A DNA stretch of 64,000 nt from a bacterium (GTDB taxonomy: Bacteria; Patescibacteriota; Patescibacteriia; Patescibacteriales; JAKAJF01): assembly GCA_021788015.1 (NCBI GenBank), contig JAJYLD010000004.1, forward strand, positions 3,580 through 67,579, given 5' to 3'. Below are positions 1 to 62,332 of the stretch, piece after piece (the stretch's first letter is position 1; each line of letters starts with the position of its first letter). Both the position numbers and the translations under genes were made by a program. Under the pieces are notes generated by a model. The model saw only the letters and a list, made by a program, of their open reading frames with translations, was not told the origin of the DNA and did not search any database.

Positions 1-141
1 AGAAACTGTGAATTAAATAAAATTTGGTTCACGATTCCTGGTTCTAAAAATCAGGAGAGGACTTTGACAATTGAAAATCAGCTAAACAAAATAAAAGGCA
101 ATTTTATATTAACGAGCACACTTTTGAAAACAAAAGTGTGG

Positions 142-3485
<3,344 letters not shown>

Positions 3486-4130: not shown

Positions 4131-5288
4131 ATGGAAGGGATAAAGATGTCTTACCTTAACCTCTGTATTAATATTATTCTCAAGGTATACAAATCCTTGA
4201 TGAATATGTCTGTTACGGAGTTAAGGCTAAAAGGGGCATATGGAAAACCTGACACTCTGTTTCTGGATGCAAATCCGGAGATTTTAATCAAGGAAAGAAT
4301 CGGGAGGTTCAATCCTTTTGCCGTTTTCGTTACGGAGGAAACCGACAACACCAACAAACAGATTTGGCCTCGGGACAAAAACCCCGCTTCTCAACCGGTA
4401 ATGTTTTTCTCCGATCCGATGGACAGGTCGAAGTACCTTGCCAAATTTATCGACGGCAAAGAAGATAAAACCTTGCTAAAGGACATATTGGGCAAGAAAG
4501 GAATTGTTCAGTGCTGGGAGAAAATAGCCGGCAAACCCGCTATTGTTACCGGTTCAACCTGTTCGATCACGTGCGTTGATAAGGGATCGGCGGATTTTTC
4601 CGTAATACTGAACATCGTGACCGGTCACCTTTTCGTTTCCTGCGCGGGAGGAAACATTTTCTTCAAGCTGCCCGGTCCGGACAAAGACGAGGAGTTTTGC
4701 AAAATCAACATCGATTATCTTTTGAAGAAAGGACAGCCGGTTATTTTTCCCTCTTCAGCCGATTCTCATTCATCCTTGGAAAAGCAAAAACGATTCGTAA
4801 CCTATCTCGGCAAAGCGGGTTACGAGGAAAATTTCAGAGATAGTATGATTTTCCTTGATGATGCGGCGCAGCATCTGCATTATCAGGAGCCCGGAGGGCC
4901 ATCGCGGATTTTATATCTTTCCAATTTTTTAAAGCCGTCCCTTGGTTTCATTCTTGCCAATGGCGAAAAAATCGGAGAGTGGATTCATTGGTTGCCCTTC
5001 CTAAGGTTTTCCAAAAATGAGCAAGGCGACCGCGCGCTTAAAATCTTTGAGATCGCCATCGCCAGGCCTTGGACGAAAAACGGCATCTTAATGTCCACGT
5101 CTCCCCCTTATAGTCTTTTCTCAATGGGAGACGGAGAAGCCTTTCTGGACATGAGCAGGCTTCGCGATCTTGATACCCCGAGTCATTATCGTTCCATGAT
5201 TTTGATTACCCCTTACGATAATGATGCGATTATTCAAATCATGGTGAGAACGGGGTATCGAGAAGTCGGCGAGACTCTCGGAACATAA
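4131..5288 (+). CDS. hypothetical protein, 385 aa, with weak inositol-monophosphatase/FBPase-like motifs
   Basis: SD 'aaaggaga' upstream and a long ORF. 'FVTEE' and 'FFSDPMDRS' resemble the EE and DPxD[GS][TS] metal-binding motifs of the IMPase fold. The match is distant. Confidence 0.6.
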   Translation: MEGIKMSYLNLCINIILKVYKSLMNMSVTELRLKGAYGKPDTLFLDANPEILIKERIGRFNPFAVFVTEETDNTNKQIWPRDKNPASQPVMFFSDPMDRSKYLAKFIDGKEDKTLLKDILGKKGIVQCWEKIAGKPAIVTGSTCSITCVDKGSADFSVILNIVTGHLFVSCAGGNIFFKLPGPDKDEEFCKINIDYLLKKGQPVIFPSSADSHSSLEKQKRFVTYLGKAGYEENFRDSMIFLDDAAQHLHYQEPGGPSRILYLSNFLKPSLGFILANGEKIGEWIHWLPFLRFSKNEQGDRALKIFEIAIARPWTKNGILMSTSPPYSLFSMGDGEAFLDMSRLRDLDTPSHYRSMILITPYDNDAIIQIMVRTGYREVGETLGT

Positions 5289-7355: not shown

Positions 7356-7359
7356 TAAT

Positions 7360-7436
7360 AGCTTGTAGGAAGTGGCTTGTAGGATGTAGCTTGTAGAATT
7401 TAAAAGCTACCAACTACTTCCTACAAGCTACAAGCT
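7360..7436. repeat. long imperfect inverted repeat (hairpin/terminator) after glmS
   Basis: 'agcttgtaggaagtggcttgtaggatgtagcttgtag' faces 'ctaccaactacttcctacaagctacaagct'. Confidence 0.6.
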
Positions 7437-7445
7437 AAAAATCAT

Positions 7446-20974: not shown

Positions 20975-22477
20975 ATGTCGGTTTTTATTTTAATTTTTAC
21001 AATTCTCTTCGCCGTTTTCGCCGTGCGGCGACTCGACCTCGCGGTAGCTTTCTTGATTTTCGCTCTACCCGCCTATCTTATTCGTTTTAAAATTCACGGT
21101 TTGCCATCCACGCTTCTTGAAGTCATGATCTGGGTGGTTTTTTTGACGTGGTGCGTGGCAAATTTCAGCGAACTGAGAACGAATTTGGCGAATCGGTTTA
21201 AAAACAAAGACAGAAAAATAAAACGTTATCCGTTTGACGCAGAACTGATTTTGCTTTTAATTATTTCTTTTGTCGCCGCCGGAATTTCCGGTTTTACCGC
21301 GAGCGCTCTTGGTATTTGGAAAGCCTATTTTTTCGAACCGGCGTTGGTGTATATTGTGGTTTTTAATATTGCCGTTCAAAAATACCGACAAAATAAAAAA
21401 AAGAATTTGGAATTTGGAATTTGGAATTTGGAATTTATTCTATGGCCATTGTTGTTTTCCGTCATTGTTATTTCTCTATTCGCGATATATCAAAAAATTA
21501 CGGGGCAATTCATCGGTAATCCTCTTTGGGCCGCCGAGGCGACGAGACGGGTTGTTTCCTTTTTCGGCTATCCCAATGCCATTGGGTTGTATGTGGGGCC
21601 ATTGGTATTAGTTTTTATCGGGTGGTTGTTTGCTATAATTCTGAAGCGGAGAGCAAGTGAAGCGACAGAATTTCGCAATAAAATTTTAAATTTTAAATTT
21701 TTAATTTTTAAACAATTTTCTATTTTTCAATTTTTAAAAATTTTTTTGATTGCGATTGGAATAGTTCTGTCCATCCTATCCATCATCTTTGCGAAATCAA
21801 ATGGCGCCGGGATCGGCGTAGGCGCGGGGTTGATCGTTTTTGGAATTTTGGCGAACAAAAAATCGAGAAAAATAACCTCTCTGATTTTGTTGATTTTGAT
21901 TTTGGGCGCGGCAATTTTCGCGCCGGCAAGAAATTTGGCGTTAAAATATTTAACGTTGAGCGATTTTTCCGGGCAGGTCAGGCAGGCGCAGTGGCGGGAG
22001 ACTTTGACCATGCTCAAAGACGGCAGAATCGTTACCGGAGCCGGTCTCGACAATTATCAAAAAACGATCGCGCCTTACCATGTTCCCGGATTTTTTTACA
22101 ATAAGTTCAATGATCCCGATTTCCACCGCAAAACCGTCTTTAACGCCGCATATCGCAAGTTGGTCTGGCAGCCGTTGGAAATTTACATGTATCCTCACAA
22201 TATACTTTTAAATTTTTGGTCAGAACTGGGACTTGCGGGCATGCTTTTGTTCATTTGGATTATCGGAAAATATTTTGTTTTAGGGATTAGGAATTTGGAA
22301 TTAGGAATTAGGAGCAGAAGAAAAGAAGATTATTTAATTTCAGGGTTGATGGGGGCCATGGTTATGATCATTGTTCAGGGGATTGTCGACGTGCCTTATT
22401 TTAAAAATGATTTATCCGTGATGTTTTGGATTTTTGTCGCGATGTTAAGTTTGTTGAATATATATAAAGAAACATGA
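20975..22477 (+). CDS. O-antigen ligase/polymerase (Wzy_C)-family membrane protein
   Basis: Polytopic. 'TGAGLDNYQ' and 'PHNILLNFWSELGLAGMLLF' resemble the Wzy_C loop and helix. Contains in-frame heptamer repeats. Confidence 0.65.
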   Translation: MSVFILIFTILFAVFAVRRLDLAVAFLIFALPAYLIRFKIHGLPSTLLEVMIWVVFLTWCVANFSELRTNLANRFKNKDRKIKRYPFDAELILLLIISFVAAGISGFTASALGIWKAYFFEPALVYIVVFNIAVQKYRQNKKKNLEFGIWNLEFILWPLLFSVIVISLFAIYQKITGQFIGNPLWAAEATRRVVSFFGYPNAIGLYVGPLVLVFIGWLFAIILKRRASEATEFRNKILNFKFLIFKQFSIFQFLKIFLIAIGIVLSILSIIFAKSNGAGIGVGAGLIVFGILANKKSRKITSLILLILILGAAIFAPARNLALKYLTLSDFSGQVRQAQWRETLTMLKDGRIVTGAGLDNYQKTIAPYHVPGFFYNKFNDPDFHRKTVFNAAYRKLVWQPLEIYMYPHNILLNFWSELGLAGMLLFIWIIGKYFVLGIRNLELGIRSRRKEDYLISGLMGAMVMIIVQGIVDVPYFKNDLSVMFWIFVAMLSLLNIYKET

Positions 22478-24524: not shown

Positions 24525-24611
24525 GGTGGGATGGCCGAGTGGTTGAAGGCGCGGCTCTCGAAAAGCCGTATGGCAGAAATGTCATCTAGGGTTCAAATCC
24601 CTATCCCACCG
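24525..24611 (+). tRNA. tRNA-Ser (anticodon CGA), long variable arm
   Basis: GGTGGGA TG GCC GAGTGGTTGAA GGC G CGGCT CTCGAAA AGCCG + variable arm + TAGGG TTCAAAT CCCTA TCCCACC G. Confidence 0.9.
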
Positions 24612-24651
24612 CCCTCTATATCGTGAACCAATTAATAGTAAACCTAGTTTT

Positions 24652-25671
24652 ATGCAAAAAATTGATGTTATTGTTATAGGAGCCGGACCAGGCGGTTTGA
24701 GTTGCGCAAAAAGATTAGCAGAATTAAAAATCGATGTCGCCGTATTTGAAAAAAATTCTTCTATAAACAGGAAAATTTGCACAGGCCTTTGGGGGTTAAA
24801 CGGAAAAACAAAAAAGATAAATTTACCCGAAGAGGTATTCGAGCGTAAATTCAACAAAGTTATAGTTTCTACCCTCAAAAATTCAATGATTGTGGAAACA
24901 AAAAGTCCGTTTGTTGCTACTCTGGACAGAACAAGATTGGGTGAATGGATGCTGGAAGAAGCAGAGGAGGCAGGAGCACAAATTTTTTTTGATTCGCCCG
25001 TAATAGATATTGGAGATAATTTTATAAATGTAAATGGACAAAAATATTTTTTTAACAGCTTGGTCGGAGCCGATGGAAGTTTTTCATTAGTTAGGAGAAA
25101 ATTAGGGCTTCCCACCAAGGCAGGAATTGGAATACAATATTGGCTAGAAGACGGACCGAAAGAATTAGAAATTCATTTGGATTATAATAGATTCGGCCCG
25201 TGGTATAGCTGGATTGCTCCGCATAAAAATTTAATTTCTATCGGAACCGGAGGAGATTTGAATTTTAAGAAGGTTGATAAATTTAAAAACGCTTTGGATG
25301 GGTGGTTGAGCGAGAGGAAAATAAATTCTTTTAAAACACAATTGGAAGGATCGTACATATGCCACGAATATCACGGTTTTAAATTCGGAAATAAGTATTT
25401 AATTGGAGATGCTGCGGGCTTGCCATCCAGCCTCACCGGAGAAGGTATTTATCCGGCCATAGTTTCCGGGATTGATGTGGCAAACATAATTTTTAATAGT
25501 GAGCATTCTCCCAAATTTATTTTTGAAGTTTTAAAAATTAAACGTCTGCACAATGTAATTCTGCGACTTTTTAAAATAAACCCGATATTAACAAAAATTG
25601 AACATAAATTTTTTCTTTGGTTATTAAAAAATGAGCACTTTAAGAATAAAGTAATCGAATTTTTAGCTTAA
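24652..25671 (+). CDS. FAD-dependent oxidoreductase, geranylgeranyl reductase family (second paralog)
   Basis: 'DVIVIGAGPGGLSCAKRL', 'LVGADGSFSLVRR', 'LIGDAAGLPSSLTGEGIYPA'. Collinear with 23469..24494. Confidence 0.75.
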   Translation: MQKIDVIVIGAGPGGLSCAKRLAELKIDVAVFEKNSSINRKICTGLWGLNGKTKKINLPEEVFERKFNKVIVSTLKNSMIVETKSPFVATLDRTRLGEWMLEEAEEAGAQIFFDSPVIDIGDNFINVNGQKYFFNSLVGADGSFSLVRRKLGLPTKAGIGIQYWLEDGPKELEIHLDYNRFGPWYSWIAPHKNLISIGTGGDLNFKKVDKFKNALDGWLSERKINSFKTQLEGSYICHEYHGFKFGNKYLIGDAAGLPSSLTGEGIYPAIVSGIDVANIIFNSEHSPKFIFEVLKIKRLHNVILRLFKINPILTKIEHKFFLWLLKNEHFKNKVIEFLA

Positions 25672-26170: not shown

Positions 26171-26238
26171 AAGGCGCGGCTCTCGAAAAGCCGTATGGCA
26201 GAAATGTCATCTAGGGTTCAAATCCCTATCCCACCGCC
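26171..26238 (+). repeat. near-exact partial copy of tRNA-Ser (D-stem 3' side to the 3' end)
   Basis: 'aaggcgcggctctcgaaaagccgtatggcagaaatgtcatctagggttcaaatccctatcccaccgcc' matches 24544-24613 by eye. The 5' acceptor and D-loop are absent. Confidence 0.85.
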
Positions 26239-33139: not shown

Positions 33140-33177
33140 ACTAAGTTGATTTATTGTTAATTGTTAACTGTTAAAAG

Positions 33178-34797
33178 TTAATGGTTTTTTTGGGCCCTTA
33201 GCTCATTTGGTAGAGTACCTGCTTTGCACGCAGGGGGTGAGGAGTTCGAGCCTCCTAGGGTCCACCATAAGATACTTTCAGAATTTTTTGAGCCAGACGG
33301 AAGGATTGCCTCGCGGCTTCGCCGCTCGGCTAAGCCGCTTTGCGCAAGGCGCAAAGCGGCAAAATCCCACGGCTCGCCAAACAAAACGGAAACGGATTTG
33401 TCCAAAAGCAAGGGGTTCGTTCCAATCTTTTGGACAAATGCCTTAATTTCTCCGAAACTCTCGCTCTGCGAGAGTTTTTCGGCTTTATTCGCGTCTAAAA
33501 TCCACGCCCGCAAGGGTTGGAGCCAATTCTTTCCCGTTCGTCCAAAATCCTCCAAATCGTTCGCAAGAGAAACTTTTTGCTTCAAAAGTTCCTCCTTTTT
33601 CGCCAAATAGTTTTCTTTGGGAATATCGCCGTCAATGTAGGCGGAAACTAACTTGTCCAGTTTCTCTTGCGTATCCGCTAATTTGGATTTCAGATTTTGG
33701 ACGAACGATTGCGATGAGCGGACATTTTCTTTTTGCCATTCATCTACTTGCCTCAACATTTTTCCTGTCCACTCATCGCAAATGGCAACGCTTTTGAGCC
33801 GTGCCTTAAGTTGCGCGACAAGATTGCTTTCTTGCACATACTTTTGCGAACATACACCTTTCTTTTTGGTGCAACGATAGTAGCGATATATGCCGCCGCA
33901 CTTGCCGCGCGAAAATTGCGCCGTGATCGCCGAGCCGCACTCTCCGCAAGAAAGTAATCCGGTAAATGGGAAGTCATGGCGTTGCTTGCTCTTGCGGGGT
34001 TTGGCACGGCGCAATAAGACATTCTGCACGGCTTCAAAAAGCGTTGCGGAAAGAATTGGCTCAAAGCGTCCTTCGTGATACTCGCCCTTGTGCTTCACCA
34101 AACCTAGATATGCTTGGTTGGTGAGCATTCGCGATATGGACGCTTTGGCAAGTGGCGTTCGGTGCCGCGTTTCCAAACCAAGTTCAGCCAAAAACTCCGC
34201 CATAGTTTCCAGCGTATGCGTCCCTTTGGCGTATTCCTCAAACGCGCGGACGATAACTTTGGATAATGTCGGGTGCGGCTCAATCGTACGCGTTTTCGGA
34301 TTATTCACATAGCCAAAGGGCGCTTTGGTCAGCCACTCTCCGCGGCGGAGTTTTTGGCGGATACCGCGATTGATATTTTCAACGAGGTTATCGCTGTAAT
34401 ACTTGGATTGACCGAACGCCACTTGCAACATAAACAACCCTTGCGGCGTGGGCTCAAACCAAAATGTCGGAAAGCGCAAAGAAACGATTTTTTGCGTGTC
34501 CACGAGATAAATGACTTTGCCGCCGTCCACCGAATTACGCGCCAACCTGTCGGGGTGCCACGCGAGTATGCCCACACCGTCCATTTTCTCAATTTCGTTC
34601 ATCATAGCGGCAAACATTTCTCGTCCGGGTTTCTTTGCGCTTTTCGCCTCTTGAAATTCTTGGATAATTTCAAGATTTTCTCTACGCGCATATTCGCGCA
34701 ATTCAAAGAGTTGAGCTTCAATACTCATAATTTGGTGGTCGTCATCTTCCGTTGATTTGCGAGCGTAGAGAAAATATTTTGGTTTGAGCATATTCAT
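33178..34797 (-). CDS. large serine recombinase (resolvase domain, recombinase domain, zinc ribbon)
   Basis: 'YARKSTEDDD' catalytic Ser, 'AWHPDRLARN', zinc ribbon 'CGECGSAITAQ...YYRCTKKKGVC', coiled-coil tail. The last ~70 codons run through IR-A and antisense tRNA-Ala, so the true C-terminus is uncertain. Confidence 0.85.
   Translation of the reverse strand: MNMLKPKYFLYARKSTEDDDHQIMSIEAQLFELREYARRENLEIIQEFQEAKSAKKPGREMFAAMMNEIEKMDGVGILAWHPDRLARNSVDGGKVIYLVDTQKIVSLRFPTFWFEPTPQGLFMLQVAFGQSKYYSDNLVENINRGIRQKLRRGEWLTKAPFGYVNNPKTRTIEPHPTLSKVIVRAFEEYAKGTHTLETMAEFLAELGLETRHRTPLAKASISRMLTNQAYLGLVKHKGEYHEGRFEPILSATLFEAVQNVLLRRAKPRKSKQRHDFPFTGLLSCGECGSAITAQFSRGKCGGIYRYYRCTKKKGVCSQKYVQESNLVAQLKARLKSVAICDEWTGKMLRQVDEWQKENVRSSQSFVQNLKSKLADTQEKLDKLVSAYIDGDIPKENYLAKKEELLKQKVSLANDLEDFGRTGKNWLQPLRAWILDANKAEKLSQSESFGEIKAFVQKIGTNPLLLDKSVSVLFGEPWDFAALRLAQSGLAERRSREAILPSGSKNSESILWWTLGGSNSSPPACKAGTLPNELRAQKNH
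33192..33267 (+). tRNA. tRNA-Ala (anticodon UGC), CCA encoded
   Basis: GGGCCCT TA GCTC ATTTGGTA GAGT A CCTGC TTTGCAC GCAGG GGGTG AGGAG TTCGAGC CTCCT AGGGTCC A CCA. G3-U70 alanine identity pair present. Confidence 0.9.
33262..33393 (+). repeat. IR-A, left copy (132 bp)
   Basis: Reverse complement of 34820-34951 with no mismatch seen by eye. Also visible as identical peptide 'IRYFQNFLSQTEGLPRGFAARLSRFAQGAKRQNPTARQTKRK' in ORFs 33207..33446 (+) and 34794..35183 (-). Confidence 0.9.
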
Positions 34798-34819
34798 ATT
34801 ATTTTAGACGCGAATAAAG

Positions 34820-34951
34820 GTTTCCGTTTTGTTTGGCGAGCCGTGGGATTTTGCCGCTTTGCGCCTTGCGCAAAGCGGCTTAGCCGAGCGGCGAAGCCGC
34901 GAGGCAATCCTTCCGTCTGGCTCAAAAAATTCTGAAAGTATCTTATGGTGG
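34820..34951 (-). repeat. IR-A, right (inverted) copy
   Basis: Reverse complement of 33262-33393. Lies immediately upstream of the recombinase start codon. Confidence 0.9.
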
Positions 34952-35104
34952 GATATTCTAAACTTTGCGCGAAACTATTTTGAGGGAAACTGACCCGCCT
35001 CCGCTTCGCTCCGGCGGAACGCTCGGGCGCGGCGGAATTCCCCCCACACCCCCCTTCCGCCGCGCCCTCGCTTCTGGCATTTCGGCGAAAAAATCCGGCG
35101 GCTA
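34947..35104 (+). repeat. IR-B, left copy (158 bp)
   Basis: Reverse complement of 36695-36852. Shares the 'ggtgg' core with IR-A. Mirrored ORF peptides 'MRETILRETDPPPLRSGGTLGRGGIPPTPPFRRALASGISAKKSGGY' appear in 34965..35162 (+) and 36538..36834 (-). Confidence 0.9.
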
Positions 35105-35211
35105 CAAAATCAGAAACCACACATTGAAAAAATCTACGATTTTTGCTATGATTGTTTTGTGAGCAAAGAAAGTAATGGCTCATATTTCTATACTATCAAA
35201 AGTAGCATACT

Positions 35212-35409
35212 ATGGCAACTATATCACAGAACATAAAACGAGTGCGAACAAAACAGGGTTTGACGCAGGACGACTTGGCGAAGAAAGCCAATATTAAATA
35301 CTCTACTCTTACGAAAATTGAGGGCGGTGTCGTTACCAAACCGAGCGTTCAAACAATTCAAAAAATCGCCAAGTCGTTAGGCGTTCCGATTGAGGAATTA
35401 TTAAAATAA
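35212..35409 (+). CDS. XRE-family helix-turn-helix transcriptional regulator (65 aa)
   Basis: 'IKRVRTKQGLTQDDLAKKANIKYSTLTKIEGG...PSVQTIQKIAKSLGVPIEELL'. Confidence 0.85.
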   Translation: MATISQNIKRVRTKQGLTQDDLAKKANIKYSTLTKIEGGVVTKPSVQTIQKIAKSLGVPIEELLK

Positions 35410-35419
35410 CTTTCAAAAT

Positions 35420-36259
35420 ATGGAAATAATCATCTTTATTGTAATAGTGGTTCTCGCGGGTCTTATTTTCCGTGGTCTTTTTGATAGAAGCTGGCGAGCA
35501 AAAGCACAAGATAATATTGACGCTATTAGAAATTCAAAGAATTTTTGGTATTTGATGAGCCAAAAAATTAACGCGGAAAAAGTATTTTCTGCTTATTTAA
35601 GAACAAGAAATCAAAAAGACTATATTAGAGTTGGTGATTGTGTTATGGATATATACTCCAACAAAGAAGAAATCAATAAAAATGATTTTGATATCAAGAC
35701 TATTACAAAGGGAGATAGTATCAAAATCGTCAATTCTGTTTTGAATCCAAAAATACAAGAAAAAGAAAAAACAATAAGCGATATTCTATCAGAAAACAAA
35801 ATCAGTTTTACTGAAGATGAAATCCGTAAAGGTTTCAAAGAATATTTTGATGAACATTTTTGGAATATCGACGAGGTGCAAAAACACTACAATCGGTTTA
35901 TGACTGCTCATCTTGATTCCTTAGTGAAAAGCAATAAAACCGGAGCGGATATATGGAAAGTGCTTAAGGATTTTGCAGATAAGGACCATGAATTTGAATT
36001 CGATCGCTCCGGTGAAAAGCATGTGGAATTTTTGGAATCGCTTAAACTACTACAAAACGATGTTAAAAACTTCGTGATAGATTTGCTTTGCGGAAAAATC
36101 GACAATAAAGAAAAATCGCAAAAACTAAAAAAGGCATTTACAGAGTGGCAACAGCTTCATATGTTGCGGTGGTGTGTTGTCGATTTTAGTGTTTGGGAAA
36201 TTGGCAAGAACAAAATACAAACAGGTTTGTGGCGCATGGCTACAGCGATTTTTCTTTAG
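35420..36259 (+). CDS. hypothetical protein, N-terminal TM anchor (279 aa)
   Basis: 'MEIIIFIVIVVLAGLIF' anchor followed by a K/E/D-rich soluble region. No motif recognised. Confidence 0.6.
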   Translation: MEIIIFIVIVVLAGLIFRGLFDRSWRAKAQDNIDAIRNSKNFWYLMSQKINAEKVFSAYLRTRNQKDYIRVGDCVMDIYSNKEEINKNDFDIKTITKGDSIKIVNSVLNPKIQEKEKTISDILSENKISFTEDEIRKGFKEYFDEHFWNIDEVQKHYNRFMTAHLDSLVKSNKTGADIWKVLKDFADKDHEFEFDRSGEKHVEFLESLKLLQNDVKNFVIDLLCGKIDNKEKSQKLKKAFTEWQQLHMLRWCVVDFSVWEIGKNKIQTGLWRMATAIFL

Positions 36260-36262
36260 CAA

Positions 36263-36697
36263 ATGACCGACCCAATCCAAACAATTTTATCTGCTCTAAC
36301 ACTTCTTGGCTTGGGTGGAATACTCGGCGGATATGTGAGTTATCTTTTGGACAAGAAAAAGGAACGAGAGTTCAAGGTGTTAGAGCAGAAAGAAAAAAGG
36401 TACAAATCCTGCCTATTGTACATGGACGCATATTTTGAACCGAAAAATATAAAGTATCTTTCGAGCCGTCAACCCGATATTGATAATGCGCAAGATGTAA
36501 TTGAGTATCTGAAAATGGAGTTTTACGAGATGATGCTTTACGCCTCGAAAGATGTTATTCTTTCGGTGAAATCGTTTATCGAAAATCCTGTGCGTGAGAA
36601 TTTTCTCAAAACGATTTTGTCCATGAGGCAGGATTTGTCCAATAAAAATGATTTGGATTTGGGCAATATGATTTTAGAGGTCAAATCCAAATCATAG
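36263..36697 (+). CDS. hypothetical protein, N-terminal TM anchor (144 aa)
   Basis: 'ILSALTLLGLGGILGGYVSYLL' anchor followed by a helical region. The stop codon is the first triplet of IR-B right. Confidence 0.6.
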   Translation: MTDPIQTILSALTLLGLGGILGGYVSYLLDKKKEREFKVLEQKEKRYKSCLLYMDAYFEPKNIKYLSSRQPDIDNAQDVIEYLKMEFYEMMLYASKDVILSVKSFIENPVRENFLKTILSMRQDLSNKNDLDLGNMILEVKSKS

Positions 36698-36852
36698 CCG
36701 CCGGATTTTTTCGCCGAAATGCCAGAAGCGAGGGCGCGGCGGAAGGGGGGTGTGGGGGGAATTCCGCCGCGCCCGAGCGTTCCGCCGGAGCGAAGCGGAG
36801 GCGGGTCAGTTTCCCTCAAAATAGTTTCGCGCAAAGTTTAGAATATCCCACC
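36695..36852 (-). repeat. IR-B, right (inverted) copy, ending in core 'cccacc'
   Basis: Reverse complement of 34947-35104. Confidence 0.9.
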
Positions 36853-36886
36853 AAACAAAAAATTCGATTCATTCGGATTTTTTTGT

Positions 36887-41740: not shown

Positions 41741-44590
41741 ATGAGCACGAAAAAAGAACGATTAATGATTATAGACGGAAACGCGCTGATTCATCGCAGT
41801 TTCCATGCCCTCCCGCCAACTTTAGCAACAAAAGACGGAAGGATGGTGAACGCGGTTTATGGATTTACTGCCGTATTATTAAAAGCTTTGCGCGAATTAA
41901 AGCCGGAATACGTGGTTTTGACTTTGGATAAAAAAGAACCGACATTCAGACATAAAGAATACAAAGAATATAAAGCGACCAGAGTAAAAGCGCCGGATGA
42001 ACTTTATGAACAGATTCCGTTAGTAAAAGAAGTTGCGCGCGCTTTCAATATTGAGATTTTTGAAAAAGAGGGTTTTGAAGCGGACGATTTGATCGGCACA
42101 ATCGTTTGTAGAACCGATCACGGAGTTGAAAAAATAATTTTGACCGGAGACATGGACACTTTGCAGCTAGTTGATGCTGACACAAAAGTTTATACCATGA
42201 GCCGGGGCGTTACCGAAAGCGCGACTTACGACGAAAAAGCGGTGCGTGAACGGTACGGACTTGCGCCGAAACAGATGGTCGATTACAAGGCTTTGCGCGG
42301 CGATCCGAGCGACAATATCCCGGGCGTGAAAGGCGTTGGCGAAAAAACCGCGGTTGAACTTTTAAAAGAATTTAAAACTTTGGAAAATCTTTATGAAAAC
42401 CTGGATTCGAAAAAAACCAAAATTAAGCCGCGCATATTGGAGTTGTTGAAAGAATTTAAAGACGACGCTTTTTTAAGCAAGCGTCTCGCCACTATAGAAT
42501 GCAACGTTGGCATTGATTTCGATTTGGAAAAAGCGCGCTTCGGAAAATTCGACCAAAGCGAAGTGATAAAACTTTTTAGCGATTTTGAATTCAAGTCGCT
42601 TTTGCCGAGAATACGAGATTTAACAATTAACAATTCACAGCTAACAATTAATAAAAAAGAGGGAGGAAGGTCTAAATTTGAAAATAAATTTGAGCGCAAT
42701 CAAAAATTGTTTAATTATATATTGGTTGATGATGAAAAAAGTTTTAATGCTTTTTTGAAAAAACTGGGAAAACAAAAAGAATTTGTTATCGATACAGAAA
42801 CGTCTTCTCTCGATCCGTTAACCGCGAGTTTGCTCGGAATCAGTTTTTCCTGGAAAGAAGGGGAAGCATATTATGTAAATTTCCAATTCCCAATTTCCAA
42901 TTTCCAATCAGGTTCAAAAAACAAAATTCCAAAAATGCAGGCAAGTTTATTTGGTAAAAAAGAGGATGATAAAAATGAAAAGATGAATCGGAACGAATGG
43001 TTAAAAAGACTGAGACCCGTTTTAGAGAATGAAAGGGTTAAAATTTTTGGCCATAATTCAAAATTCGACATGCGCGTTTTGCGGAATTACGGCCTGAACA
43101 TGAATGTCTTTTTCGATTCCATGATCGCTTCTTATCTTTTAAATCCGGGATCGCGCCAGCACAATCTTGATGCCGTAACTTTTGCCGAATTCGGTTTTGA
43201 AAAAATCAGTGTCGACGATCTTTTGGGCAAGGGAAAAGAAAAAATTACTTTTTCGGAAATTCCCTTGGAAAAAATTTTTATTTATTCTTGCGAAGACGCA
43301 GATTTTACGTTGCGCTTGGCGAAAAAACTCGCTCCGGAATTGAGGAAGAATAAACTTGAAAATCTCTTCCGGAATATAGAAATGCCGCTTGTGTCGGTTT
43401 TGGCGGAAATGGAAAATAATGGAATCAAACTTGATGATAAATTTCTGCGCAGGTTAAGTCAAGAAATCGGAAAAAAAATCGGCCGGCTCGAGAAAAAGAT
43501 CAAAGATTTGGCCGGAATGAATTTCAATATCAATTCCACGCAGCAGCTTCGCGAAGTTCTTTTTGAAAAACTGGAAATCCCGACTTTGCTTGTCGGGAAA
43601 ACAAAAACCGGCTTATCGACTTCGGCCGACGAGCTTATGAAATTAAGAGATTATCATCCTATTATCAGACTGATTCAGGATTATCGCGAATTGACGAAAC
43701 TGGCCAATACTTACGTCGATGCTCTGACTGAACTCGTGAATAAAAAAACCGGACGCCTCCACACTTCTTTTAATCAAACCGTCACGGCGACCGGTCGACT
43801 TTCTTCAACCGAACCGAATTTGCAAAATATTCCCATTCGCACGGAAATCGGGCGAGAAATCCGCAAAGCTTTCATCGCCGACAAGGGGTTTAGACTTTTA
43901 AGCTTGGATTATTCGCAAATCGAATTGCGGCTCGCCGCCCATATGTCCGGCGATCCGGCCATGATCAAGGCTTTTCAAAAAAATGAAGACATCCACGCGG
44001 CTACGGCCGCGGCCATAAATGGCGTAATTCTCGATAAAGTGACGCCGGAAATGCGCCGAGAAGCGAAAGCGGTGAACTTCGGCATTTTATACGGCCAGGG
44101 GCCGCACGGTCTTTCCCAATCCGCCGATATTCCTTATATAAAAGCGAAAGAATTTATCGATGAATATTTTAAATTGTACAAAAAAGTGAAAATTTTCGTC
44201 GATAAATCGATCGAAAACGCGCGCGAAAAAGGTTATGCCGAAACATTGCTCGGACGCAGGCGTTTTTTGCCGGAAATAAATTCTTCGGTCATGACGGTAA
44301 GAAAAACCGCGGAAAGAATGGCGATCAATACGCCCCTTCAGGGTACGGCCGCCGACATGATCAAGGCGGCCATGATTGAAATTTATAAAAACAGAAGATC
44401 CTTGAACGACGCTAAAATGCTTTTGCAAGTGCATGACGAGTTGCTATTCGAAGTGGCGGATGAAAAATCGCTTGATGTTTCCAAAAAAATTGAATATATA
44501 ATGGAGAATGTTTTAAAATTAAAAATTCCGATCGTGGTCGAGGCGAAATTCGGCCGCAATTGGAGTGAAATGGAAAAATTTAATAATTAG
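41741..44590 (+). CDS. polA: DNA polymerase I
   Basis: 5'-nuclease 'LMIIDGNALIHRSFHA', 'GDPSDNIPGVKGVGEKTA', 3'-5' exo 'VIDTETSSL', pol motifs 'LLSLDYSQIELRLAAH', 'RREAKAVNFGILYG', 'QVHDELLFE'. Confidence 0.95.
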   Translation: MSTKKERLMIIDGNALIHRSFHALPPTLATKDGRMVNAVYGFTAVLLKALRELKPEYVVLTLDKKEPTFRHKEYKEYKATRVKAPDELYEQIPLVKEVARAFNIEIFEKEGFEADDLIGTIVCRTDHGVEKIILTGDMDTLQLVDADTKVYTMSRGVTESATYDEKAVRERYGLAPKQMVDYKALRGDPSDNIPGVKGVGEKTAVELLKEFKTLENLYENLDSKKTKIKPRILELLKEFKDDAFLSKRLATIECNVGIDFDLEKARFGKFDQSEVIKLFSDFEFKSLLPRIRDLTINNSQLTINKKEGGRSKFENKFERNQKLFNYILVDDEKSFNAFLKKLGKQKEFVIDTETSSLDPLTASLLGISFSWKEGEAYYVNFQFPISNFQSGSKNKIPKMQASLFGKKEDDKNEKMNRNEWLKRLRPVLENERVKIFGHNSKFDMRVLRNYGLNMNVFFDSMIASYLLNPGSRQHNLDAVTFAEFGFEKISVDDLLGKGKEKITFSEIPLEKIFIYSCEDADFTLRLAKKLAPELRKNKLENLFRNIEMPLVSVLAEMENNGIKLDDKFLRRLSQEIGKKIGRLEKKIKDLAGMNFNINSTQQLREVLFEKLEIPTLLVGKTKTGLSTSADELMKLRDYHPIIRLIQDYRELTKLANTYVDALTELVNKKTGRLHTSFNQTVTATGRLSSTEPNLQNIPIRTEIGREIRKAFIADKGFRLLSLDYSQIELRLAAHMSGDPAMIKAFQKNEDIHAATAAAINGVILDKVTPEMRREAKAVNFGILYGQGPHGLSQSADIPYIKAKEFIDEYFKLYKKVKIFVDKSIENAREKGYAETLLGRRRFLPEINSSVMTVRKTAERMAINTPLQGTAADMIKAAMIEIYKNRRSLNDAKMLLQVHDELLFEVADEKSLDVSKKIEYIMENVLKLKIPIVVEAKFGRNWSEMEKFNN

Positions 44591-44601: not shown

Positions 44602-45990
44602 ATGACTTTAAGCGGTTTAAAAAACAAAAAGATCGCCATTCTCGGATTGGGTATTGAAAATCACGCCTTGATTAAGTATTTGTTGAAAAAGAAACTGAAG
44701 ACGGAAATCACGATTTGCGACGCGAGAAGCAAAGAACAACTGGGAGAAAAATATCTCGAATTCGAGAAAGAAAAAAATATAAACTGGAGACTGGGCGAAG
44801 AATTCAATCATGGTTTGTATGAATTTGACATTCTTTTTCGCTCGCCGGGCTGGCCGATTTTTTGTCCGGGAATCAGGGAAGCTTTGATGAAGCCGAAAGT
44901 AATTTTATCAAGTCCGATGAAATTATTTTTCGATCTTTGCCCTTCAAAAATTATCGGCGTGACCGGCACAAAGGGGAAAGGAACAACCGCCAGTTTGATT
45001 TACGCAATTTTAAAAACGGCAAAAAAGAGAGTTTGGCTCGGCGGCAATATCGGAGTGGCGCCGTTCACTTTTTTAAATAAAATTAAAAAGGGCGATTGGG
45101 TCGTGCTTGAAATTTCCAGTTTTCAGCTCGAAGACATGGAAGCGAGCCCGCATATCGCGGTAATCACCAATTTTTATCCGGAGCATCTTCGCCCCGCCGA
45201 TCCGATCAATCCGAATTATCACGAGTCGTTAAGAGTTTATTGGGAAGCGAAGATGAATGTAATTAGATACCAGAAAAAAGGAGATTATGCGATTTTAAAT
45301 TCAAAATTCAGAAGGCAAAAATCAAAATTATCACCGCCCTGGCGGGATCCCGCCTTCAATAATAAAAATAAAGTGGCGGGACAATTCAAAATTCAAAATT
45401 TAAGAAGTAAAATTATTTATTTTGATAAATCCGAATCGAAGTCAAATTTAATCGGTGAACATAATAAGGAAAATGTCGCGGCGGCTCAAGTCGTGGCGGA
45501 AATTGTGGGAGCGAAAAAGACGGATATCATTCGCGGAGTTTTAAAATTCAAAGGCTTGGAGCATAGACTGGAACATGTCCGCGCCTTAAACGGAGTTGAT
45601 TACTTCAACGATACTTTCGCCACCACTCCGGAATCGAGTATCATCGCTTTGAAAGCTTTTGCGAGGCCGATAATTTTACTCGCCGGAGGAGCGGATAAGG
45701 GATCGAATTTTCATGAATTTGCGAAAGAAATAAAAAAGAGAGCGAAGTTTGTAATTTTACTTGACGGCAAAGCGACGCCGAGAATTAAAAAAGAATTGTC
45801 GCGGTCGCATTTTGAAAAAAAGAAAATGAAAACCGTTTTTGGCATGGAAGAAGCGGTCAAGGTCGCTTTCGAGAACGCGCAAAAAAACGATATCGTCCTT
45901 CTTTCCACCGCCTGCGCCAGTTTCGGCATGTTTAAAAATTACAAAGAAAGAGGAAAATTGTTTAAACGAGAGGTGAATTTGTTAAAATAA
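44602..45990 (+). CDS. murD: UDP-N-acetylmuramoylalanine--D-glutamate ligase
   Basis: 'GVTGTKGKGTT' P-loop, 'EISSFQLE', 'GLEHRLE'. N-terminal Rossmann 'IAILGLGIEN'. Confidence 0.85.
   Translation: MTLSGLKNKKIAILGLGIENHALIKYLLKKKLKTEITICDARSKEQLGEKYLEFEKEKNINWRLGEEFNHGLYEFDILFRSPGWPIFCPGIREALMKPKVILSSPMKLFFDLCPSKIIGVTGTKGKGTTASLIYAILKTAKKRVWLGGNIGVAPFTFLNKIKKGDWVVLEISSFQLEDMEASPHIAVITNFYPEHLRPADPINPNYHESLRVYWEAKMNVIRYQKKGDYAILNSKFRRQKSKLSPPWRDPAFNNKNKVAGQFKIQNLRSKIIYFDKSESKSNLIGEHNKENVAAAQVVAEIVGAKKTDIIRGVLKFKGLEHRLEHVRALNGVDYFNDTFATTPESSIIALKAFARPIILLAGGADKGSNFHEFAKEIKKRAKFVILLDGKATPRIKKELSRSHFEKKKMKTVFGMEEAVKVAFENAQKNDIVLLSTACASFGMFKNYKERGKLFKREVNLLK
45297..45401. repeat. ~100-bp interspersed repeat inside murD (copy 1)
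   Basis: About 90% identical by eye to 57753-57857. Core 'aaatcaaaattatcaccgcc(c/t)tggcgggatcccgcct..ataaaaataaagtgg(c/t)gggacaattcaaaattcaaaa'. Confidence 0.85.
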
Positions 45991-56654: not shown

Positions 56655-58082
56655 ATGAACAAAACAAAACCCCCCGAACCATCTTTGCGCGAAGGGGGTA
56701 TTAAAAAACCCGAGCTCCTTGCCCCGGCGGGCAATTTGGAAAAAATGAAAACCGCGTTTGCGTTCGGTGCCGACGCGGTTTATGCGGGTATTCCCGATTT
56801 TTCGTTGCGTGTCCGCATCAATGATTTTACGGTCGAATCGCTTAAAGAGGCGGTCGCATACGCTCATAAACTCGGAAAAAATTTTTATGTGACAGCCAAT
56901 ATTTTTGCGCATAACCGCCATATCGAAAAACTGGGAAAGCATATTCGCGAATTAAAAAAGATTAAGCCGGACGGCATTTTCGTTTCCGATCCGGGAGCGA
57001 TTCGGGAAATAAGAAGGATTTGGCCGAAAGCGAATATTATTTTGAGCACGCAGGCGAATTGCACGAATTGGCAGGCGGTAAAATTTTGGAGCGAACAAGG
57101 AATAAAAAGAGTGATTTTGGATCGGGAGGTTTCTCTCGATGAAATTAGAGAGATAAAAAAGAAAGCGCCAAAGGTCGAGCTGGAATCGTTCGTGCACGGC
57201 GCTTTATGCATGGCCTATTCCGGAAGATGTTTCCTTTCCAAATATTTGACGGGCCGCTCGGCAAATCTTGGTGATTGCGCTCAACCGTGCAGATGGCCAT
57301 ACGCGCGGACAAATTCGGACTTGGACGCGGACTCATGCGGACAGGAAGGCGGAATTATGATTAAACCGGTAGGACGAAATGAAGTTTTGGAAATAGTTGA
57401 AGAGGAACACGGTTCTTATATTTTGAATTCAAACGATCTCTGTTTGATAAAAAAGATACCGGAACTGACCGAAGCCGGACTGAACGCGTTCAAAATCGAG
57501 GGCCGGGCGAAAAGCGTTTATTATTTGGCGACCGTGGTCGGCGCCTATCGAAAGGCGATTGACGTTTCGCATAACGTGAAACGCATAACGCATAACGCAA
57601 GAAAAGAATTAAATTTTTTATATAAAGAGCTTGAAGAAAAGTTGAATCACCGCGGCTATACGGAAGGGTTTATGTTTGAGACGGGAAAGTTGGCGCAAAA
57701 CCTGAAAAATTCGCATAACGGTTCGAATTGGGAATTTTGCGGACAAGCGATAAAAGTTCAAAATTCAAAAACAAAAAATCAAAATTATCACCGCCTTGGC
57801 GGGATCCCGCCTGCAATGATAAAAATAAAGTGGTGGGACAATTCAAAATTCAAAAACAAAAAATTTATCAGTTTTATAAAAATACACAACAGTTTGCATA
57901 TTGGAGACAGTATTGAGATAATTATGCCGGGATATGATATAATAAAGATGAAAGTTAAAAAAATGGTCGATGCGATGACCGGCGAAACTTTGACCGAGGC
58001 GCACGGCGGCCAGAATAGCATAATTAAATTAGAAACAAAAGCCAAAATTCCCGAATTTAGCGTTTTGAGAAGAAAATTATGA
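56655..58082 (+). CDS. peptidase U32 family protein
   Basis: 'PELLAPAGNLEKMKTAFAFGADAVY', 'ESFVHGALCMAYSGRCFLS', 'KIEGRAKSVYYLATVVGAYR'. Confidence 0.85.
   Translation: MNKTKPPEPSLREGGIKKPELLAPAGNLEKMKTAFAFGADAVYAGIPDFSLRVRINDFTVESLKEAVAYAHKLGKNFYVTANIFAHNRHIEKLGKHIRELKKIKPDGIFVSDPGAIREIRRIWPKANIILSTQANCTNWQAVKFWSEQGIKRVILDREVSLDEIREIKKKAPKVELESFVHGALCMAYSGRCFLSKYLTGRSANLGDCAQPCRWPYARTNSDLDADSCGQEGGIMIKPVGRNEVLEIVEEEHGSYILNSNDLCLIKKIPELTEAGLNAFKIEGRAKSVYYLATVVGAYRKAIDVSHNVKRITHNARKELNFLYKELEEKLNHRGYTEGFMFETGKLAQNLKNSHNGSNWEFCGQAIKVQNSKTKNQNYHRLGGIPPAMIKIKWWDNSKFKNKKFISFIKIHNSLHIGDSIEIIMPGYDIIKMKVKKMVDAMTGETLTEAHGGQNSIIKLETKAKIPEFSVLRRKL
57753..57857. repeat. ~100-bp interspersed repeat inside the U32 peptidase gene (copy 2)
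   Basis: Homologous to 45297-45401 but translated in a different frame ('NYHRLGGIPPAMIKIKWW' versus 'LSPPWRDPAFNNKNKVAG'). Confidence 0.85.
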
Positions 58083-59303: not shown

Positions 59304-60290
59304 ATGAAAATAATCGAAATAACAAATAAAGAACAGTTGGATGGTTTCGTCGGTTCCCAGCCGCACAGTCAGTTTTTGCAGTCCTGGGAATGGGGAGAAT
59401 TTCAAAAAAAAGTGAGTGGAAAAGTTTGGCGCCTGGGCGTGGAAGACGGCGACGGGCTTGCGGCAACCGCAAAAATAATCAAAAAATCTTTGCCCATGGG
59501 TAAAAATTACTTTTACTGCGGTCGCGGTCCGGTTTTGGATGAATTAAGAATTAAGGATTACGAATTGAGAATTGAAATTTTGAAAATATTGTTTCAAGAA
59601 ATAGAAAAAATTGCAAAAGAAGAAAAGGTAATGTTTTTGCGCTTCGATCCTTTATTCAAAATTGAAAACTTAAATTTTAAAATCAATCAAACCATCGACG
59701 TTCAGCCCGGTCAAACTTTGGTTTTGGATTTGACCAAAAACGAAAAGGATCTTTTAAAAGAAATGCATACGAAAACAAGATATAATATTCGTTTGGCTGA
59801 AAAGAAAGGCGTGAAAATTATCGAAGGAAATTCTTTGCGCTTTGAAGAGTTTTGGAGCCTACTCGATCAGACGAGCGGCAGAGACAAATTTAGTCCGCAC
59901 GGAAGAAATTATTACAAATCCATGCTCGAGCTGTCTTCGGATTTTATCAAATTGTTCTTTGCCGAATACGAAGGCAAGGCGATTGCCGCCGGCATTTTTT
60001 CTTTTTTTGGCGACTCGGTTACCTATCTTCACGGCGGATCCGCCAATGAACTTCGAAATGTAATGGCGCCGTTTTTACTGCAATGGCATCTTATCAAACT
60101 GGCGAAAGAGAGCGGATTCAAATATTACGATTTTCACGGGGTCAGCGAAGAAAAGTGGCCGGGAGTAACGAGATTTAAAAAAGGTTTTGGCGGCGAAGAG
60201 ATAAATTATCCCGGCACTTTTGATTTGACTTATGACGAAGGTTGGTACGGGATTTATAAGATGGTCAGGAAGGTACGCAGGACATTCTAA
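59304..60290 (+). CDS. FemAB-family peptidoglycan bridge-formation aminoacyltransferase
   Basis: 'FLQSWEWGEF', 'TRYNIRLAEKKGV', 'YLHGGSA', 'YDFHGV...GVTRFKKGFGG'. Confidence 0.8.
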   Translation: MKIIEITNKEQLDGFVGSQPHSQFLQSWEWGEFQKKVSGKVWRLGVEDGDGLAATAKIIKKSLPMGKNYFYCGRGPVLDELRIKDYELRIEILKILFQEIEKIAKEEKVMFLRFDPLFKIENLNFKINQTIDVQPGQTLVLDLTKNEKDLLKEMHTKTRYNIRLAEKKGVKIIEGNSLRFEEFWSLLDQTSGRDKFSPHGRNYYKSMLELSSDFIKLFFAEYEGKAIAAGIFSFFGDSVTYLHGGSANELRNVMAPFLLQWHLIKLAKESGFKYYDFHGVSEEKWPGVTRFKKGFGGEEINYPGTFDLTYDEGWYGIYKMVRKVRRTF

Positions 60291-60308: not shown

Positions 60309-61724
60309 ATGGATAAGTTTCTGTTAAAAATCAAAAAATTAATTCCTTCTAAAATATTTAAAATCCTTCAGCCCACTTACCATTATTTATTGAGCGCTTT
60401 TTCCGCTTTTTGGTATGGCAGGCCTTCGGAGAAATTGATCGTTATCGGCATAACCGGCACGACCGGAAAGACAACATCCGTTTATATGATGGCAAAGACC
60501 CTGGAAGCGGCCGGATATAAAGTCGGTTATACCTCGACCGCCATGTTTGGCGACGGCGAAAGGGAATGGCTGAACGACAAAAAAATGACCATGGTCGGGC
60601 GATTTTTCACGCAAAGAATGCTTAGAGACATGGTCAAAAACAAATGCCAATACGCCGTAATCGAAACCACTTCCGAAGGGGTGAGGCAATTTCGTCATAA
60701 ATTCATCAATTATGACATTTTGATTTTTACCGGTCTTTATCCCGAGCATATCGAATCGCACGGCGGATTTGAAAATTACAAAATCGCCAAAGGCAAATTG
60801 TTCGAGCATCTCAAGTCATGTAAAACAAAATACGCCGATGAAAAAAAATTTGTTTACGCGGGGGCGAGCGAGTTAAAGAAAACCGATTTAAATAAGGTTA
60901 AAAAAACAACCATTGTTAATTTGGACGATGAGTACGCTTTTTATTTCACCGAATTTTGGGCGGAGGAAAAGTGGGGGTACGCTGAACAAAACTCAAAACG
61001 CAAAACTCAAAACGCAAAACTCAATTTGATTACGTATGGCGAGATCAAGGTGAGCCAATCGGGAACAAGTTTTAAAGTGGAAAAGGCAAGAATCAACCTC
61101 CAGCTTCTCGGCGCTTTTAACGCGACCAACGCCATGAACGCGGTTTGTGTCGGCCTTTCCCAAAACATAAATTTGGATTCGATTAAGAACGGACTGGAGA
61201 AAATAAAAGGCATCCCGGGCAGGCTTGAAAAAATTGATTCGGGCCAGCCCTTTACTGTGATTGTCGATTACGCTTTCGAGCCGAACGCCGTCAAAAAATT
61301 ATATGACGCGGTTAAAATAATCCCGCATAATAAAATCATCCATGTTTTGGGAGCGACCGGCGGAGGCAGAGACGCTTCGCGCAGACCGGCTTTGGGGAGA
61401 TTGGCCGGAGAAAACGCGGAAATAGTGATTGTCACAAACGAAGATCCTTACGACGACGACCCCAAATTGATAATCGATCAGGTCGCGTTTGGCGCGGAAT
61501 ACAAAGGCAAAGAAGAAGAAAAGGATTTATTCAAGATATTGGATCGCGGGCAGGCCATTAAAAAGGCTTTAGCTTTAGCCGACGAAAACGATGTTGTATT
61601 GATTACCGGCAAGGGTAGCGAGCAGGCGATTTGCGCGGCTCGAGGCGAAAAAATACCCTGGGACGATCGAAGGGTTACCGAAAGATTTTTAAAGGAATCA
61701 TTCGCAACGGAGATGTCAGGATAA
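60309..61724 (+). CDS. Mur ligase family protein (MurE-like UDP-MurNAc-tripeptide synthetase)
   Basis: 'GITGTTGKTT' P-loop, 'ETTSEG', 'FTGLYPEHIESHG', 'DYAFEP', 'ITGKGSE'. Confidence 0.75.
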   Translation: MDKFLLKIKKLIPSKIFKILQPTYHYLLSAFSAFWYGRPSEKLIVIGITGTTGKTTSVYMMAKTLEAAGYKVGYTSTAMFGDGEREWLNDKKMTMVGRFFTQRMLRDMVKNKCQYAVIETTSEGVRQFRHKFINYDILIFTGLYPEHIESHGGFENYKIAKGKLFEHLKSCKTKYADEKKFVYAGASELKKTDLNKVKKTTIVNLDDEYAFYFTEFWAEEKWGYAEQNSKRKTQNAKLNLITYGEIKVSQSGTSFKVEKARINLQLLGAFNATNAMNAVCVGLSQNINLDSIKNGLEKIKGIPGRLEKIDSGQPFTVIVDYAFEPNAVKKLYDAVKIIPHNKIIHVLGATGGGRDASRRPALGRLAGENAEIVIVTNEDPYDDDPKLIIDQVAFGAEYKGKEEEKDLFKILDRGQAIKKALALADENDVVLITGKGSEQAICAARGEKIPWDDRRVTERFLKESFATEMSG

Positions 61725-61883: not shown

Positions 61884-62332
61884 AAAAAACAGCATTCAAA
61901 CTAAAGCTTCAGGAATATATTTCAAAAATTCGGAAAACGGAAATAAACGGAAAATTCGCGCACAAGCTGCGAAAAATAGCCGTTTTTTTGTTTTTAAAGC
62001 CACAAATACCCCCAAAACCAAATTTATATAAACCCGTGCTTTTTAAATATTTTTCTAAAATAGAGGTGGCCAGGACTTCGTCTAATTAAATTGAATATCA
62101 TTTTTATCGTGTTCTTAATAAAAGAGAGCATTTTTTTAGTCTGAAAAAACAAAATTTAACGATTTCCCAAGACAGAGAGAAATTTCGGGGACGCGAATGT
62201 AAAATAAAAAATCGAAAATATCTAAATTATAATTTCCAATTTCTAATAAAACGCCCAATGTCAAAAATCAAATCAGAAGTCGGCTTATTAGAAATTATGA
62301 TTTAAAAATTAGAAATTTATTTTCAAATATTT

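Follow-up and report, generated by a model that had tools for sequence, protein, structure and literature searches.

Rickettsia palindromic elements (RPEs) have been described as in-frame fusions in unrelated housekeeping genes, with a conserved peptide and apparent compatibility with folding, and miniature inverted-repeat transposable elements (hereafter MITEs) are sometimes intragenic with in-frame fusions as well (PMC10969869). What defines REPs, the repetitive extragenic palindromic sequences, is a conserved GTAG or CGTC tetranucleotide at the palindrome's 5' foot (PMC3733652). The present analysis concerns a short repeat in a 64,000-nt stretch of a Patescibacteria (candidate phyla radiation, CPR) genome (contig JAJYLD010000004.1, positions 3,580 to 67,579; hereafter the window), where it lies in frame in murD and in the gene of a U32-family protein. 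Its 51-nt GC-rich core folds as two adjacent hairpins and is set in AT-rich tandem arrays with a 7-nt period. The repeat is probably a small, non-autonomous, palindromic REP/MITE-like mobile DNA element, widespread among Patescibacteria, that is translated and tolerated in its host proteins. The core works like RPEs, resembles REPs and the miniature elements derived from IS200/IS605 insertion sequences (IS), and departs from each type compared in one or more defining features. A literature search (CPR or Patescibacteria with MITE, REP, REP-associated tyrosine transposase (RAYT), palindromic or heptanucleotide repeats) returned no description of it, and as far as found the element is new to this phylum.

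The likeness to RPEs, which an earlier note on this DNA had drawn, was upheld: the repeat is palindromic, in frame, and present in unrelated genes. Like RPEs, it is a short multi-copy palindrome of a reduced-genome bacterium, with a sizeable minority of copies in frame in unrelated housekeeping genes, and the open reading frame (ORF) is preserved in MurD, U32, a TsaD-like protein and others. It differs from RPEs in host phylum (Patescibacteria), in length (51–54 nt versus roughly 100–150 nt), in the share of intragenic copies (~10% versus nearly half in some RPE families), in being read in two or three frames and not in one conserved ORF, and in being bound to 7-nt arrays. Judged by host and by its 51-nt length, the core is very unlikely to belong to a described RPE family, the behavior alone being alike.

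The core, its 7-nt array flanks and its empty sites

A repeat search of the window aligned positions 45297–45398 with 57754–57855 as an ungapped 102-nt pair at 91% identity, and the shared block was unbroken in the pairwise alignment of the two copies, both of which lie on the + strand, each within a long ORF. The earlier note had described a shared element of ~100 bp at ~90% identity; this was borne out for the stretch common to murD and U32, but the unit conserved across the family is the 51-nt core. The window contains the 25-mer ATCACCGCCYTGGCGGGATCCCGCC exactly two times, versus 0 in 100 dinucleotide-preserving shuffles, so the likeness comes from a real GC-rich core and not just from A/T runs. 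The sequences of both copies are base for base the same in two other, independent assemblies (ENA ERZ27233565 and Logan SRR13170411), which excludes an assembly artefact.

For murD, the core occupies 45331–45381 (+ strand; exact motif, covariance model score 80.7 bits, E = 3e-18, two-hairpin fold), between a left array of AAATTCA type at 45297–45330 (+ strand; Tandem Repeats Finder (TRF) period 7), which is also present in the MurD loop of the fetched loci L149, L150 and L151, and a right AATTCAA array at 45382–45400 (+ strand; TRF period 7, 100% matches), which aligns to the L149 array right after the empty site. For U32, the core lies at 57788–57838 (+ strand; exact motif, 74.9 bits, two-hairpin fold), within an array-core-array insertion of ~96 nt at 57756–57851 (+ strand), delimited against L154 of the nearest relative and corresponding to the ~100-nt repeat shared with murD. 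The family pattern runs TCACCGCC-NNG-GCGGGA and, without a gap, TCCCGCC, then an A/T loop of 20 nt and GGCGGGA; the murD core reads TCACCGCCCTGGCGGGA, then TCCCGCC, 20 nt of loop and GGCGGGA. Across the family, the core starts as TC-A-CCGCC NNG GCGGGA and measures 51–54 nt. The internal helices that had been noticed earlier correspond to the two adjacent hairpins into which each core folds, both using one stem sequence, TC(A)CCGCC...GGCGGGA, with a junction, GGCGGGATCCCGCC, that is a perfect 14-nt palindrome. The closing stem of the U32 core carries a C-to-T change (GGTGGG).

The core amounts to 17 codons and can be read through in two of the three sense frames; in the murD and U32 copies, stops interrupt the remaining sense frame and every antisense frame. 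In MurD it reads SPPWRDPAFNNKNKVAG, and in U32, one frame off from MurD, (Y)HRLGGIPPAMIKIKWWD (full reading YHRLGGIPPAMIKIKWWD). These translations agree with the peptides quoted in the earlier note, according to which the element lies in frame in two genes, in differing frames, with both ORFs open. An AT-rich tandem array of AATTCAA type lies on both sides of the core; since a 7-nt repeat passes through all three frames per 21 nt, a stop-free array is open in every frame, and the flanks are therefore readable in either frame. Tryptic peptides predicted in silico from the translated inserts are LSPPWRDPAFNNK and VAGQFK for MurD, and LGGIPPAMIK and WWDNSK for U32.

The nearest relative carrying both genes was found on a 110-kb JGI contig (MurD and U32 64–71% identical to the window proteins), and it has an empty site in both, in agreement with an insertion. 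Its MurD loop DNA (L149) reads ..AAATTCAAAATTCAAAAATCAAAAATCAAAACTA^CAATTCAAAAATCAAAAATATTTAAGTAAAATTG.., and the murD loop of the window has 51 nt between ..AAATTCAAAATTCAGAAGGCAAAAATCAAAATTA and CAATTCAAAATTCAAAATTTAAGAAGTAAAATTA.., with equal array lengths in the two (34 nt left, 42 nt right). Filled and empty sites thus differ by a precise indel of exactly the 51-nt core, without target duplication and with at most one ambiguous A. Because the array is present in L149 without the core and at equal lengths, the MurD heptamer array is older than the core; the direct TTCAAAATTCA flanks pointed out earlier are present, but as heptamer array units that were there beforehand and not as a target-site duplication (TSD). 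For the same reason, accumulated footprints of 7-bp TSDs were rejected as the source of the arrays for the murD event, being contradicted by the equal array lengths, and a TA or TTA duplication, as in Tc1- or PIF-type MITEs, was also rejected, the right flank being no repeat of the left. The array also occurs at the same loop in L150 and L151, the latter without any hairpin. In L150 (MurD ortholog P0020), an AATTCAA x4 array holds another GC hairpin of 21 nt, CATGTCCCCGAATGGGGGAAA, translated as HVPEWGK, roughly where the window has the 51-nt core. It seems that small GC hairpins of several kinds are attracted by the 7-nt arrays.

Flank statistics were computed on 80 non-redundant copies of the core. 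Period-7 enrichment in the flanks was 0.44 versus ~0.32 for other lags, and the identity of the left 7 nt to the right 7 nt was 0.52 versus 0.42 ± 0.016 in permuted controls, a raised likeness that is due to the periodic array. The array was in phase across the core in 17 of the 31 copies with a determinable register, the commonest outcome. Of 83 copies, 53 had a left flank that ended in NTA, and the right flank mostly began with CAA, AAA or CGA; from these patterns, the core sits at a unit boundary of the heptamer array, usually ..TTA^CAA...

In the nearest relative (L154), the U32 sequence is WEFCGIVVKKENKIIYIKVHN, free of array and core alike, so that the window insertion comprises ~96 nt of array, core and array. 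The murD and U32 copies share flanks past the core (31 nt left and 16 nt right), and the U32 copy was therefore probably derived from a murD-type composite, through mobilization of the core with adjacent array units or through homology-driven copying. Copying of the ~100-nt murD loop into U32 by recombination or template switching, via microhomology, homology or A-rich tracts, is a possible but doubtful source of the second copy: it fits the flanks common to both copies, an array that is ancestral in murD with array and core both new in U32, and the native U32 sequence AAAAACAAAAAAT beside the insert, which recurs within it. The donor could also have been a third, unseen copy, and pairs of unrelated loci in other genomes with common near flanks around the core (L023/L135, and L048/L053 with L145) suggest that core and array regularly move together. 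Such copying would bear only on the origin of the second copy and not on the identity of the family.

The family in other genomes and its probable mode of spread

The exact core pattern was scanned against one genome per species and against metagenome contigs. It was found in about ten Patescibacteria-type contigs of metagenome-assembled genomes in the one-genome-per-species scan, the other matches of which come from GC-rich genomes and look like chance, and in at least 120 metagenome contigs, with 101 distinct copies among the matches listed. A covariance model (R1) built from 68 copies gave 145 matches in 0.68 Mb of core-bearing contigs, some with 3–4 copies per 10 kb, and the earlier description as an interspersed repeat accordingly holds for a multi-copy family across Patescibacteria. 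Although outside the search pattern, the closing stem GTGGCGGGA and a large part of the loop (..ATAATAAAGT) are near-invariant. Stem cells are paired in 99.7% of cases across the family, with both-sided changes in 6 of 13 pairs (covariation), and a compensated variant family, CTCCGCC...GGCGGAG, is present. No Rfam family matched anywhere in the window at the gathering score, and the exact core had 0 matches in 2.9 million viral contigs, on which carriage by phages was rejected.

About 90% of copies lie outside long ORFs, most of the intergenic ones ~40–110 nt from gene ends and without preferred orientation (29 versus 25 relative to co-directional neighboring genes). Related elements are nested in the large loop of others (L034, L049, L060, L105), always just past CCCGCCCA, and tandem copies are also present. 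One nested element is a variant, TCACCGCCATCGGGCGGGACTCCGCC...GGGGGCGGAGC, with a compensated second stem, which lies in the large loop of a standard core after CCCGCCCA; L104 and L105, identical in all other respects, are polymorphic for a second nested type, CCACCGCATTTTGCGGGGTCCCGCC. Loci with the variant element or the second nested type are L034, L041, L049, L051, L060, L108 and L110, and L105 and L123.

Among described elements, REPs and their hairpin-forming doublets (REPINs) are likewise GC-rich imperfect palindromes of ~20–50 nt, mostly extragenic, multi-copy and often paired or clustered, with covarying stems, and the lack of target duplication at the murD core is a further likeness. 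The ends of the core, TCACCGCC and GGCGGGAC (GTCCCGCC on the other strand), differ from REPs in having no GTAG or CGTC tag, and its hairpins are in tandem on one strand and not arranged as an inverted REP doublet. Most REPIN-RAYT systems are confined to a lineage and pass vertically, whereas the core family spans many divergent genomes, and no RAYT flanked by the core was found among the fetched loci. A RAYT-like Y1 transposase gene (PF01797, HUH motif PNHIHVL) lies at 4443–4991 of L057, a CPR contig, and also in L148, L051 and L068, with an 84% identical homolog in L098; in L057, copies of another GC hairpin repeat, ACGGCAG(A/G)GTC...GAC(T/C)CTGCCG, border it on either side, so REP-RAYT-type systems exist in Patescibacteria.

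Palindrome-associated transposable elements (PATEs), derived from IS200/IS605, share with the core subterminal hairpins of the same stem at both ends, seamless presence/absence, the lack of duplication and a short preferred flank motif (here the left NTA, in the 53 of 83 copies). IS608-type ends have linker and guide segments beside the hairpins; the core differs in that its hairpins abut the element ends and in its unbiased orientation relative to gene direction, and an autonomous TnpA-encoding IS with the ends of the core was not found in about 1 Mb of core-containing loci. With classical MITEs (Correia, ERIC, Nezha, QMITE), the core shares small size, non-autonomy, the capacity to be nested or in tandem, and terminal inverted repeats, TC(A)CCGCC pairing with GGCGGGA (outer stem halves 99.7% paired). 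It differs from them in the lack of a TSD between filled and empty murD, and at 51 nt it is smaller than nearly all described MITEs.

Taken as a mobile element, the core would insert precisely at a unit boundary of an AT-rich 7-nt array, without target duplication. In murD, the array would already have been present in the surface loop and the core alone would have been added; in U32, a composite of ~96 nt, very like the murD copy, would have been added in full. Since 51 nt make 17 codons, two sense frames are open and the array is stop-free, insertions in sense orientation can spare the host ORF, and the insert would then be translated as an extra 17–33 residues in a length-tolerant loop. Movement in trans by a single-strand enzyme of HUH/Y1 type (IS200/IS605 or RAYT-like) is tentatively suggested by end hairpins that have their stem in common, by the nesting, by the preference for a short flank and by the seamless presence/absence. 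This enzyme assignment is put no higher because no partner was found, the Y1 genes are accompanied by another hairpin, GTAG and CGTC tags are missing and there is no orientation bias.

Several observations weigh against a mobile element of this kind. No longer, autonomous form carrying a gene in its large loop was present among about 150 loci, and the only Y1 transposases in the fetched loci were those of L057 and L098, flanked by the different hairpin family. IS200/IS605 elements have a strongly replication-biased orientation, unlike the even orientation of the core relative to genes, and the tags of classical REPs are absent from the core. The core and part of its loop are strongly conserved across genomes with 29–49% flanking GC, which makes a host function possible; the window holds two family copies only (covariance model, filters off); the 31 + 16 nt of murD flank on the U32 copy are unexplained by simple transposition of the core; and translation of the insert is inferred. 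In the window itself, tblastn searches (IS200, IS608 and YafM query sequences, then the CPR RAYT from L057) returned no Y1 transposase.

The conservation, including that of the loop motif ATAATAAAGT across genomes of differing flanks and GC, would also be expected of a core that is mainly host-functional, as a site for a dimeric DNA-binding protein on GGCGGGATCCCGCC or as an mRNA stability or processing hairpin, and that was spread and kept by selection, with the two coding copies incidental. REP elements have been co-opted for host roles in other bacteria, and the mostly intergenic position, ~40–110 nt from gene ends, points the same way. Such a role is nonetheless unlikely as the main explanation: orientation is unbiased relative to transcription, nested and tandem copies and presence/absence among close relatives are typical of selfish spread, and the copies in loops of essential enzymes have no obvious regulatory logic. 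It is also compatible with a mobile origin, as domesticated REPs remain derived from mobile elements.

Host proteins and probable tolerance of the insert

The murD gene (44602–45990, + strand) encodes a UDP-N-acetylmuramoylalanine--D-glutamate ligase of 462 aa (Pfam MurD-like_N, Mur_ligase_M and Mur_ligase_C; best solved relative PDB 3lk7 MurD, E = 7e-50), in which array and core span residues about 232–267. The U32-family protein (56655–58082, + strand; 475 aa) has Peptidase_U32 at residues 90–343 plus U32_C (Pfam); the U32_C match resumes at residue 405, at profile position 18, and the insert separates strands 1 and 2 of the C-terminal barrel. Homologs of both proteins place the host in Patescibacteria.

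Ortholog alignment (27 MurD and 22 U32 sequences) and structure mapping placed both inserts in loops of hypervariable length, as the earlier note had left to be checked. The MurD loop at the insert spans 13–45 residues among orthologs, and the U32 segment ranges from none to >30 residues. The core peptides are absent from every ortholog in both alignments, which rules out the alternative of an ancestral protein segment that had been raised with the repeat. Other translated repeats (FKIQNS-type arrays, VETRRGASL, PCLPAGRRA) occupy these loops in many orthologs. Loop repeats of this kind in orthologs P0089, P0096, P0122, P0148 and P0162 include VETRHASSPVSARPTRRGN, twice in one protein, and IASAAKQSL..LPRRRFVPPRND, besides PCLPAGRRA, VIPAKAGIQ..LDPRLREDD and RDEALPRLR; to judge from these sequences, in-frame repeat insertion appears to be general in the CPR group. 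In AlphaFold2 (AF2) models, with a mean predicted local distance difference test score (pLDDT) of 82.6 for MurD (good) and 70.6 for U32 (moderate), insert residues 240–262 of MurD, between strands 229–233 and 270–274, and insert residues 372–401 of U32, between strands 359–369 and 404–410, all have pLDDT below 50, and the strands on either side are confidently modeled.

Further hosts with core copies in frame are the TsaD-like protein in L039 and the proteins in L008, L045 and L067, and these copies encode the same two peptides, SPPWRDPA.. or YHRLGGIPP... Every intragenic copy found keeps the host frame open, copies within open ORFs being the only ones detectable, and only copies with a stop-free loop use the sense frame in which the standard loop has stops. 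The coding compatibility of the core looks incidental and not evolved. The number of open sense frames was 1.6 versus 1.47 ± 0.07 in loop-shuffled cores, which is unconvincing as coding adaptation, and lengths divisible by 3 are over-represented (52/73) among copies that are not independent and may reflect shared descent.

The earlier note had asked whether the insert is tolerated in the proteins or removed at the RNA level, and the indirect evidence favors translation and tolerance. Post-transcriptional excision (intron-like, ribozyme-like or processed by an endonuclease), which would leave mature MurD and U32 without the insert, is very improbable. The element is strongly structured, the same genome has long hairpin insertions in its 23S rRNA and an RNase III gene, and CPR rRNA insertions have been reported absent from mature rRNA, all of which would suit excision. 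A permissive Rfam scan of the murD copy region (E up to 10) gave a best E of 2 and no intron or ribozyme, the 51-nt core is far under the size of a group I or II intron, the insert of 17–33 aa is too short for an intein, and we know of no bacterial mRNA ligation pathway for such hairpins. The open frames of the intragenic copies (within the limit of detection just given), with the stop-bearing frame used only where the loop is stop-free, would be expected of an insert that must be translated and needless if it were excised, and orthologs accept 13–45 aa of unrelated sequence in the same loops. That there was no insertion at all, and that the likeness is chance low complexity, an ancestral protein segment or an assembly artefact, has next to no probability: the flanks are A/T-rich and of low complexity and ortholog MurD loops encode FKIQ/KLQFK-like peptides, but the GC core occurs twice versus 0 expected, no ortholog has its peptide, the nearest relative has empty sites and three independent assemblies agree base for base.

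Patescibacteria genomes are tiny and assumed to be streamlined, yet 51-nt hairpin repeats are common in them, even within essential enzymes such as MurD. With translation and functional neutrality of the insert, both inferred, this would be a second, independent case of the Rickettsia phenomenon of selfish DNA in coding genes, making comparative study possible, and would account for part of the low-complexity or "junk peptide" insertions in CPR protein alignments. Core copies are usable as a strain-typing marker, and annotators and structure predictors should be cautioned that such segments are repeat-derived.

Period-7 arrays, 23S rRNA and other features of the window

Period-7 arrays numbered 21 in the window versus 2.65 expected from dinucleotide shuffles, an excess of ~8-fold, and other tandem periods were near expectation. 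The arrays consist of 4–5 units, each locus with its own AT-rich unit, and include those at 400–465, 944–1017, 7359–7437, 21403–21436, 22280–22313, 33153–33186, 42620–42651, 42878–42908, 57568–57599, 59541–59573, 60987–61024 and 62216–62331. In-frame examples are found in a Wzy_C-like protein, PolA, U32, FemAB and a second Mur ligase, and the arrays also form inverted arms, both in intergenic DNA and in rRNA. They also appear to serve as landing sites for GC hairpins.

Core and arrays may be two parts of one undescribed, CPR-wide mobile system, with the arrays acting as, or produced as, landing pads, which we consider speculative. In such a system, the core and other GC hairpins (as the 21-nt one of L150) would enter and leave arrays seamlessly, surface loops of housekeeping proteins and rRNA expansion segments would be continually remodeled in reduced genomes, and a new enzyme and a 7-nt stepping mechanism would be involved. 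The 7-nt arrays in protein loops and in 23S hairpins may indicate a common source of CPR loop and rRNA expansions.

The 23S rRNA (141–3479) measures 3339 nt versus 2925 nt for the model and contains several insertions. Those at ~372–484 and ~918–1040 form long hairpins, near-perfect and with inverted heptamer arrays as arms, and there are smaller ones besides; the 915–1175 region folds at -107 kcal/mol (z = -10.5), and one insertion lies at a helix tip (model positions 573–600). A weak match of the covariance model at 1074–1140 was rejected as a family member, being an expansion of a native 23S hairpin. The genome could be extended by about 4.4 kb on the upstream side of the window. The RNase III gene lies ~2 kb upstream of the window (L152, 2108–2806), and the 16S rRNA is not adjacent to the 23S rRNA.

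The region 33178–36853 encodes, on the minus strand, a large serine recombinase of 539 aa (Resolvase, Recombinase, Zn_ribbon_recom) that overlaps the 3' end of tRNA-Ala (33192–33267), and contains two inverted-repeat pairs, of 132 nt and 159 nt, each 100% identical. A second assembly from this population (L028) has positions 35105–36694 the other way round, which suggests an invertible segment, an integrated element or ambiguous assembly at the repeats. For tRNA-Ser(CGA), the 3' 68 nt are exactly duplicated at 24546–24613 and 26171–26238, 1.6 kb apart, with a 339-aa ORF (24652–25671) between them, and the duplicates look like attL and attR of a small integrated element.

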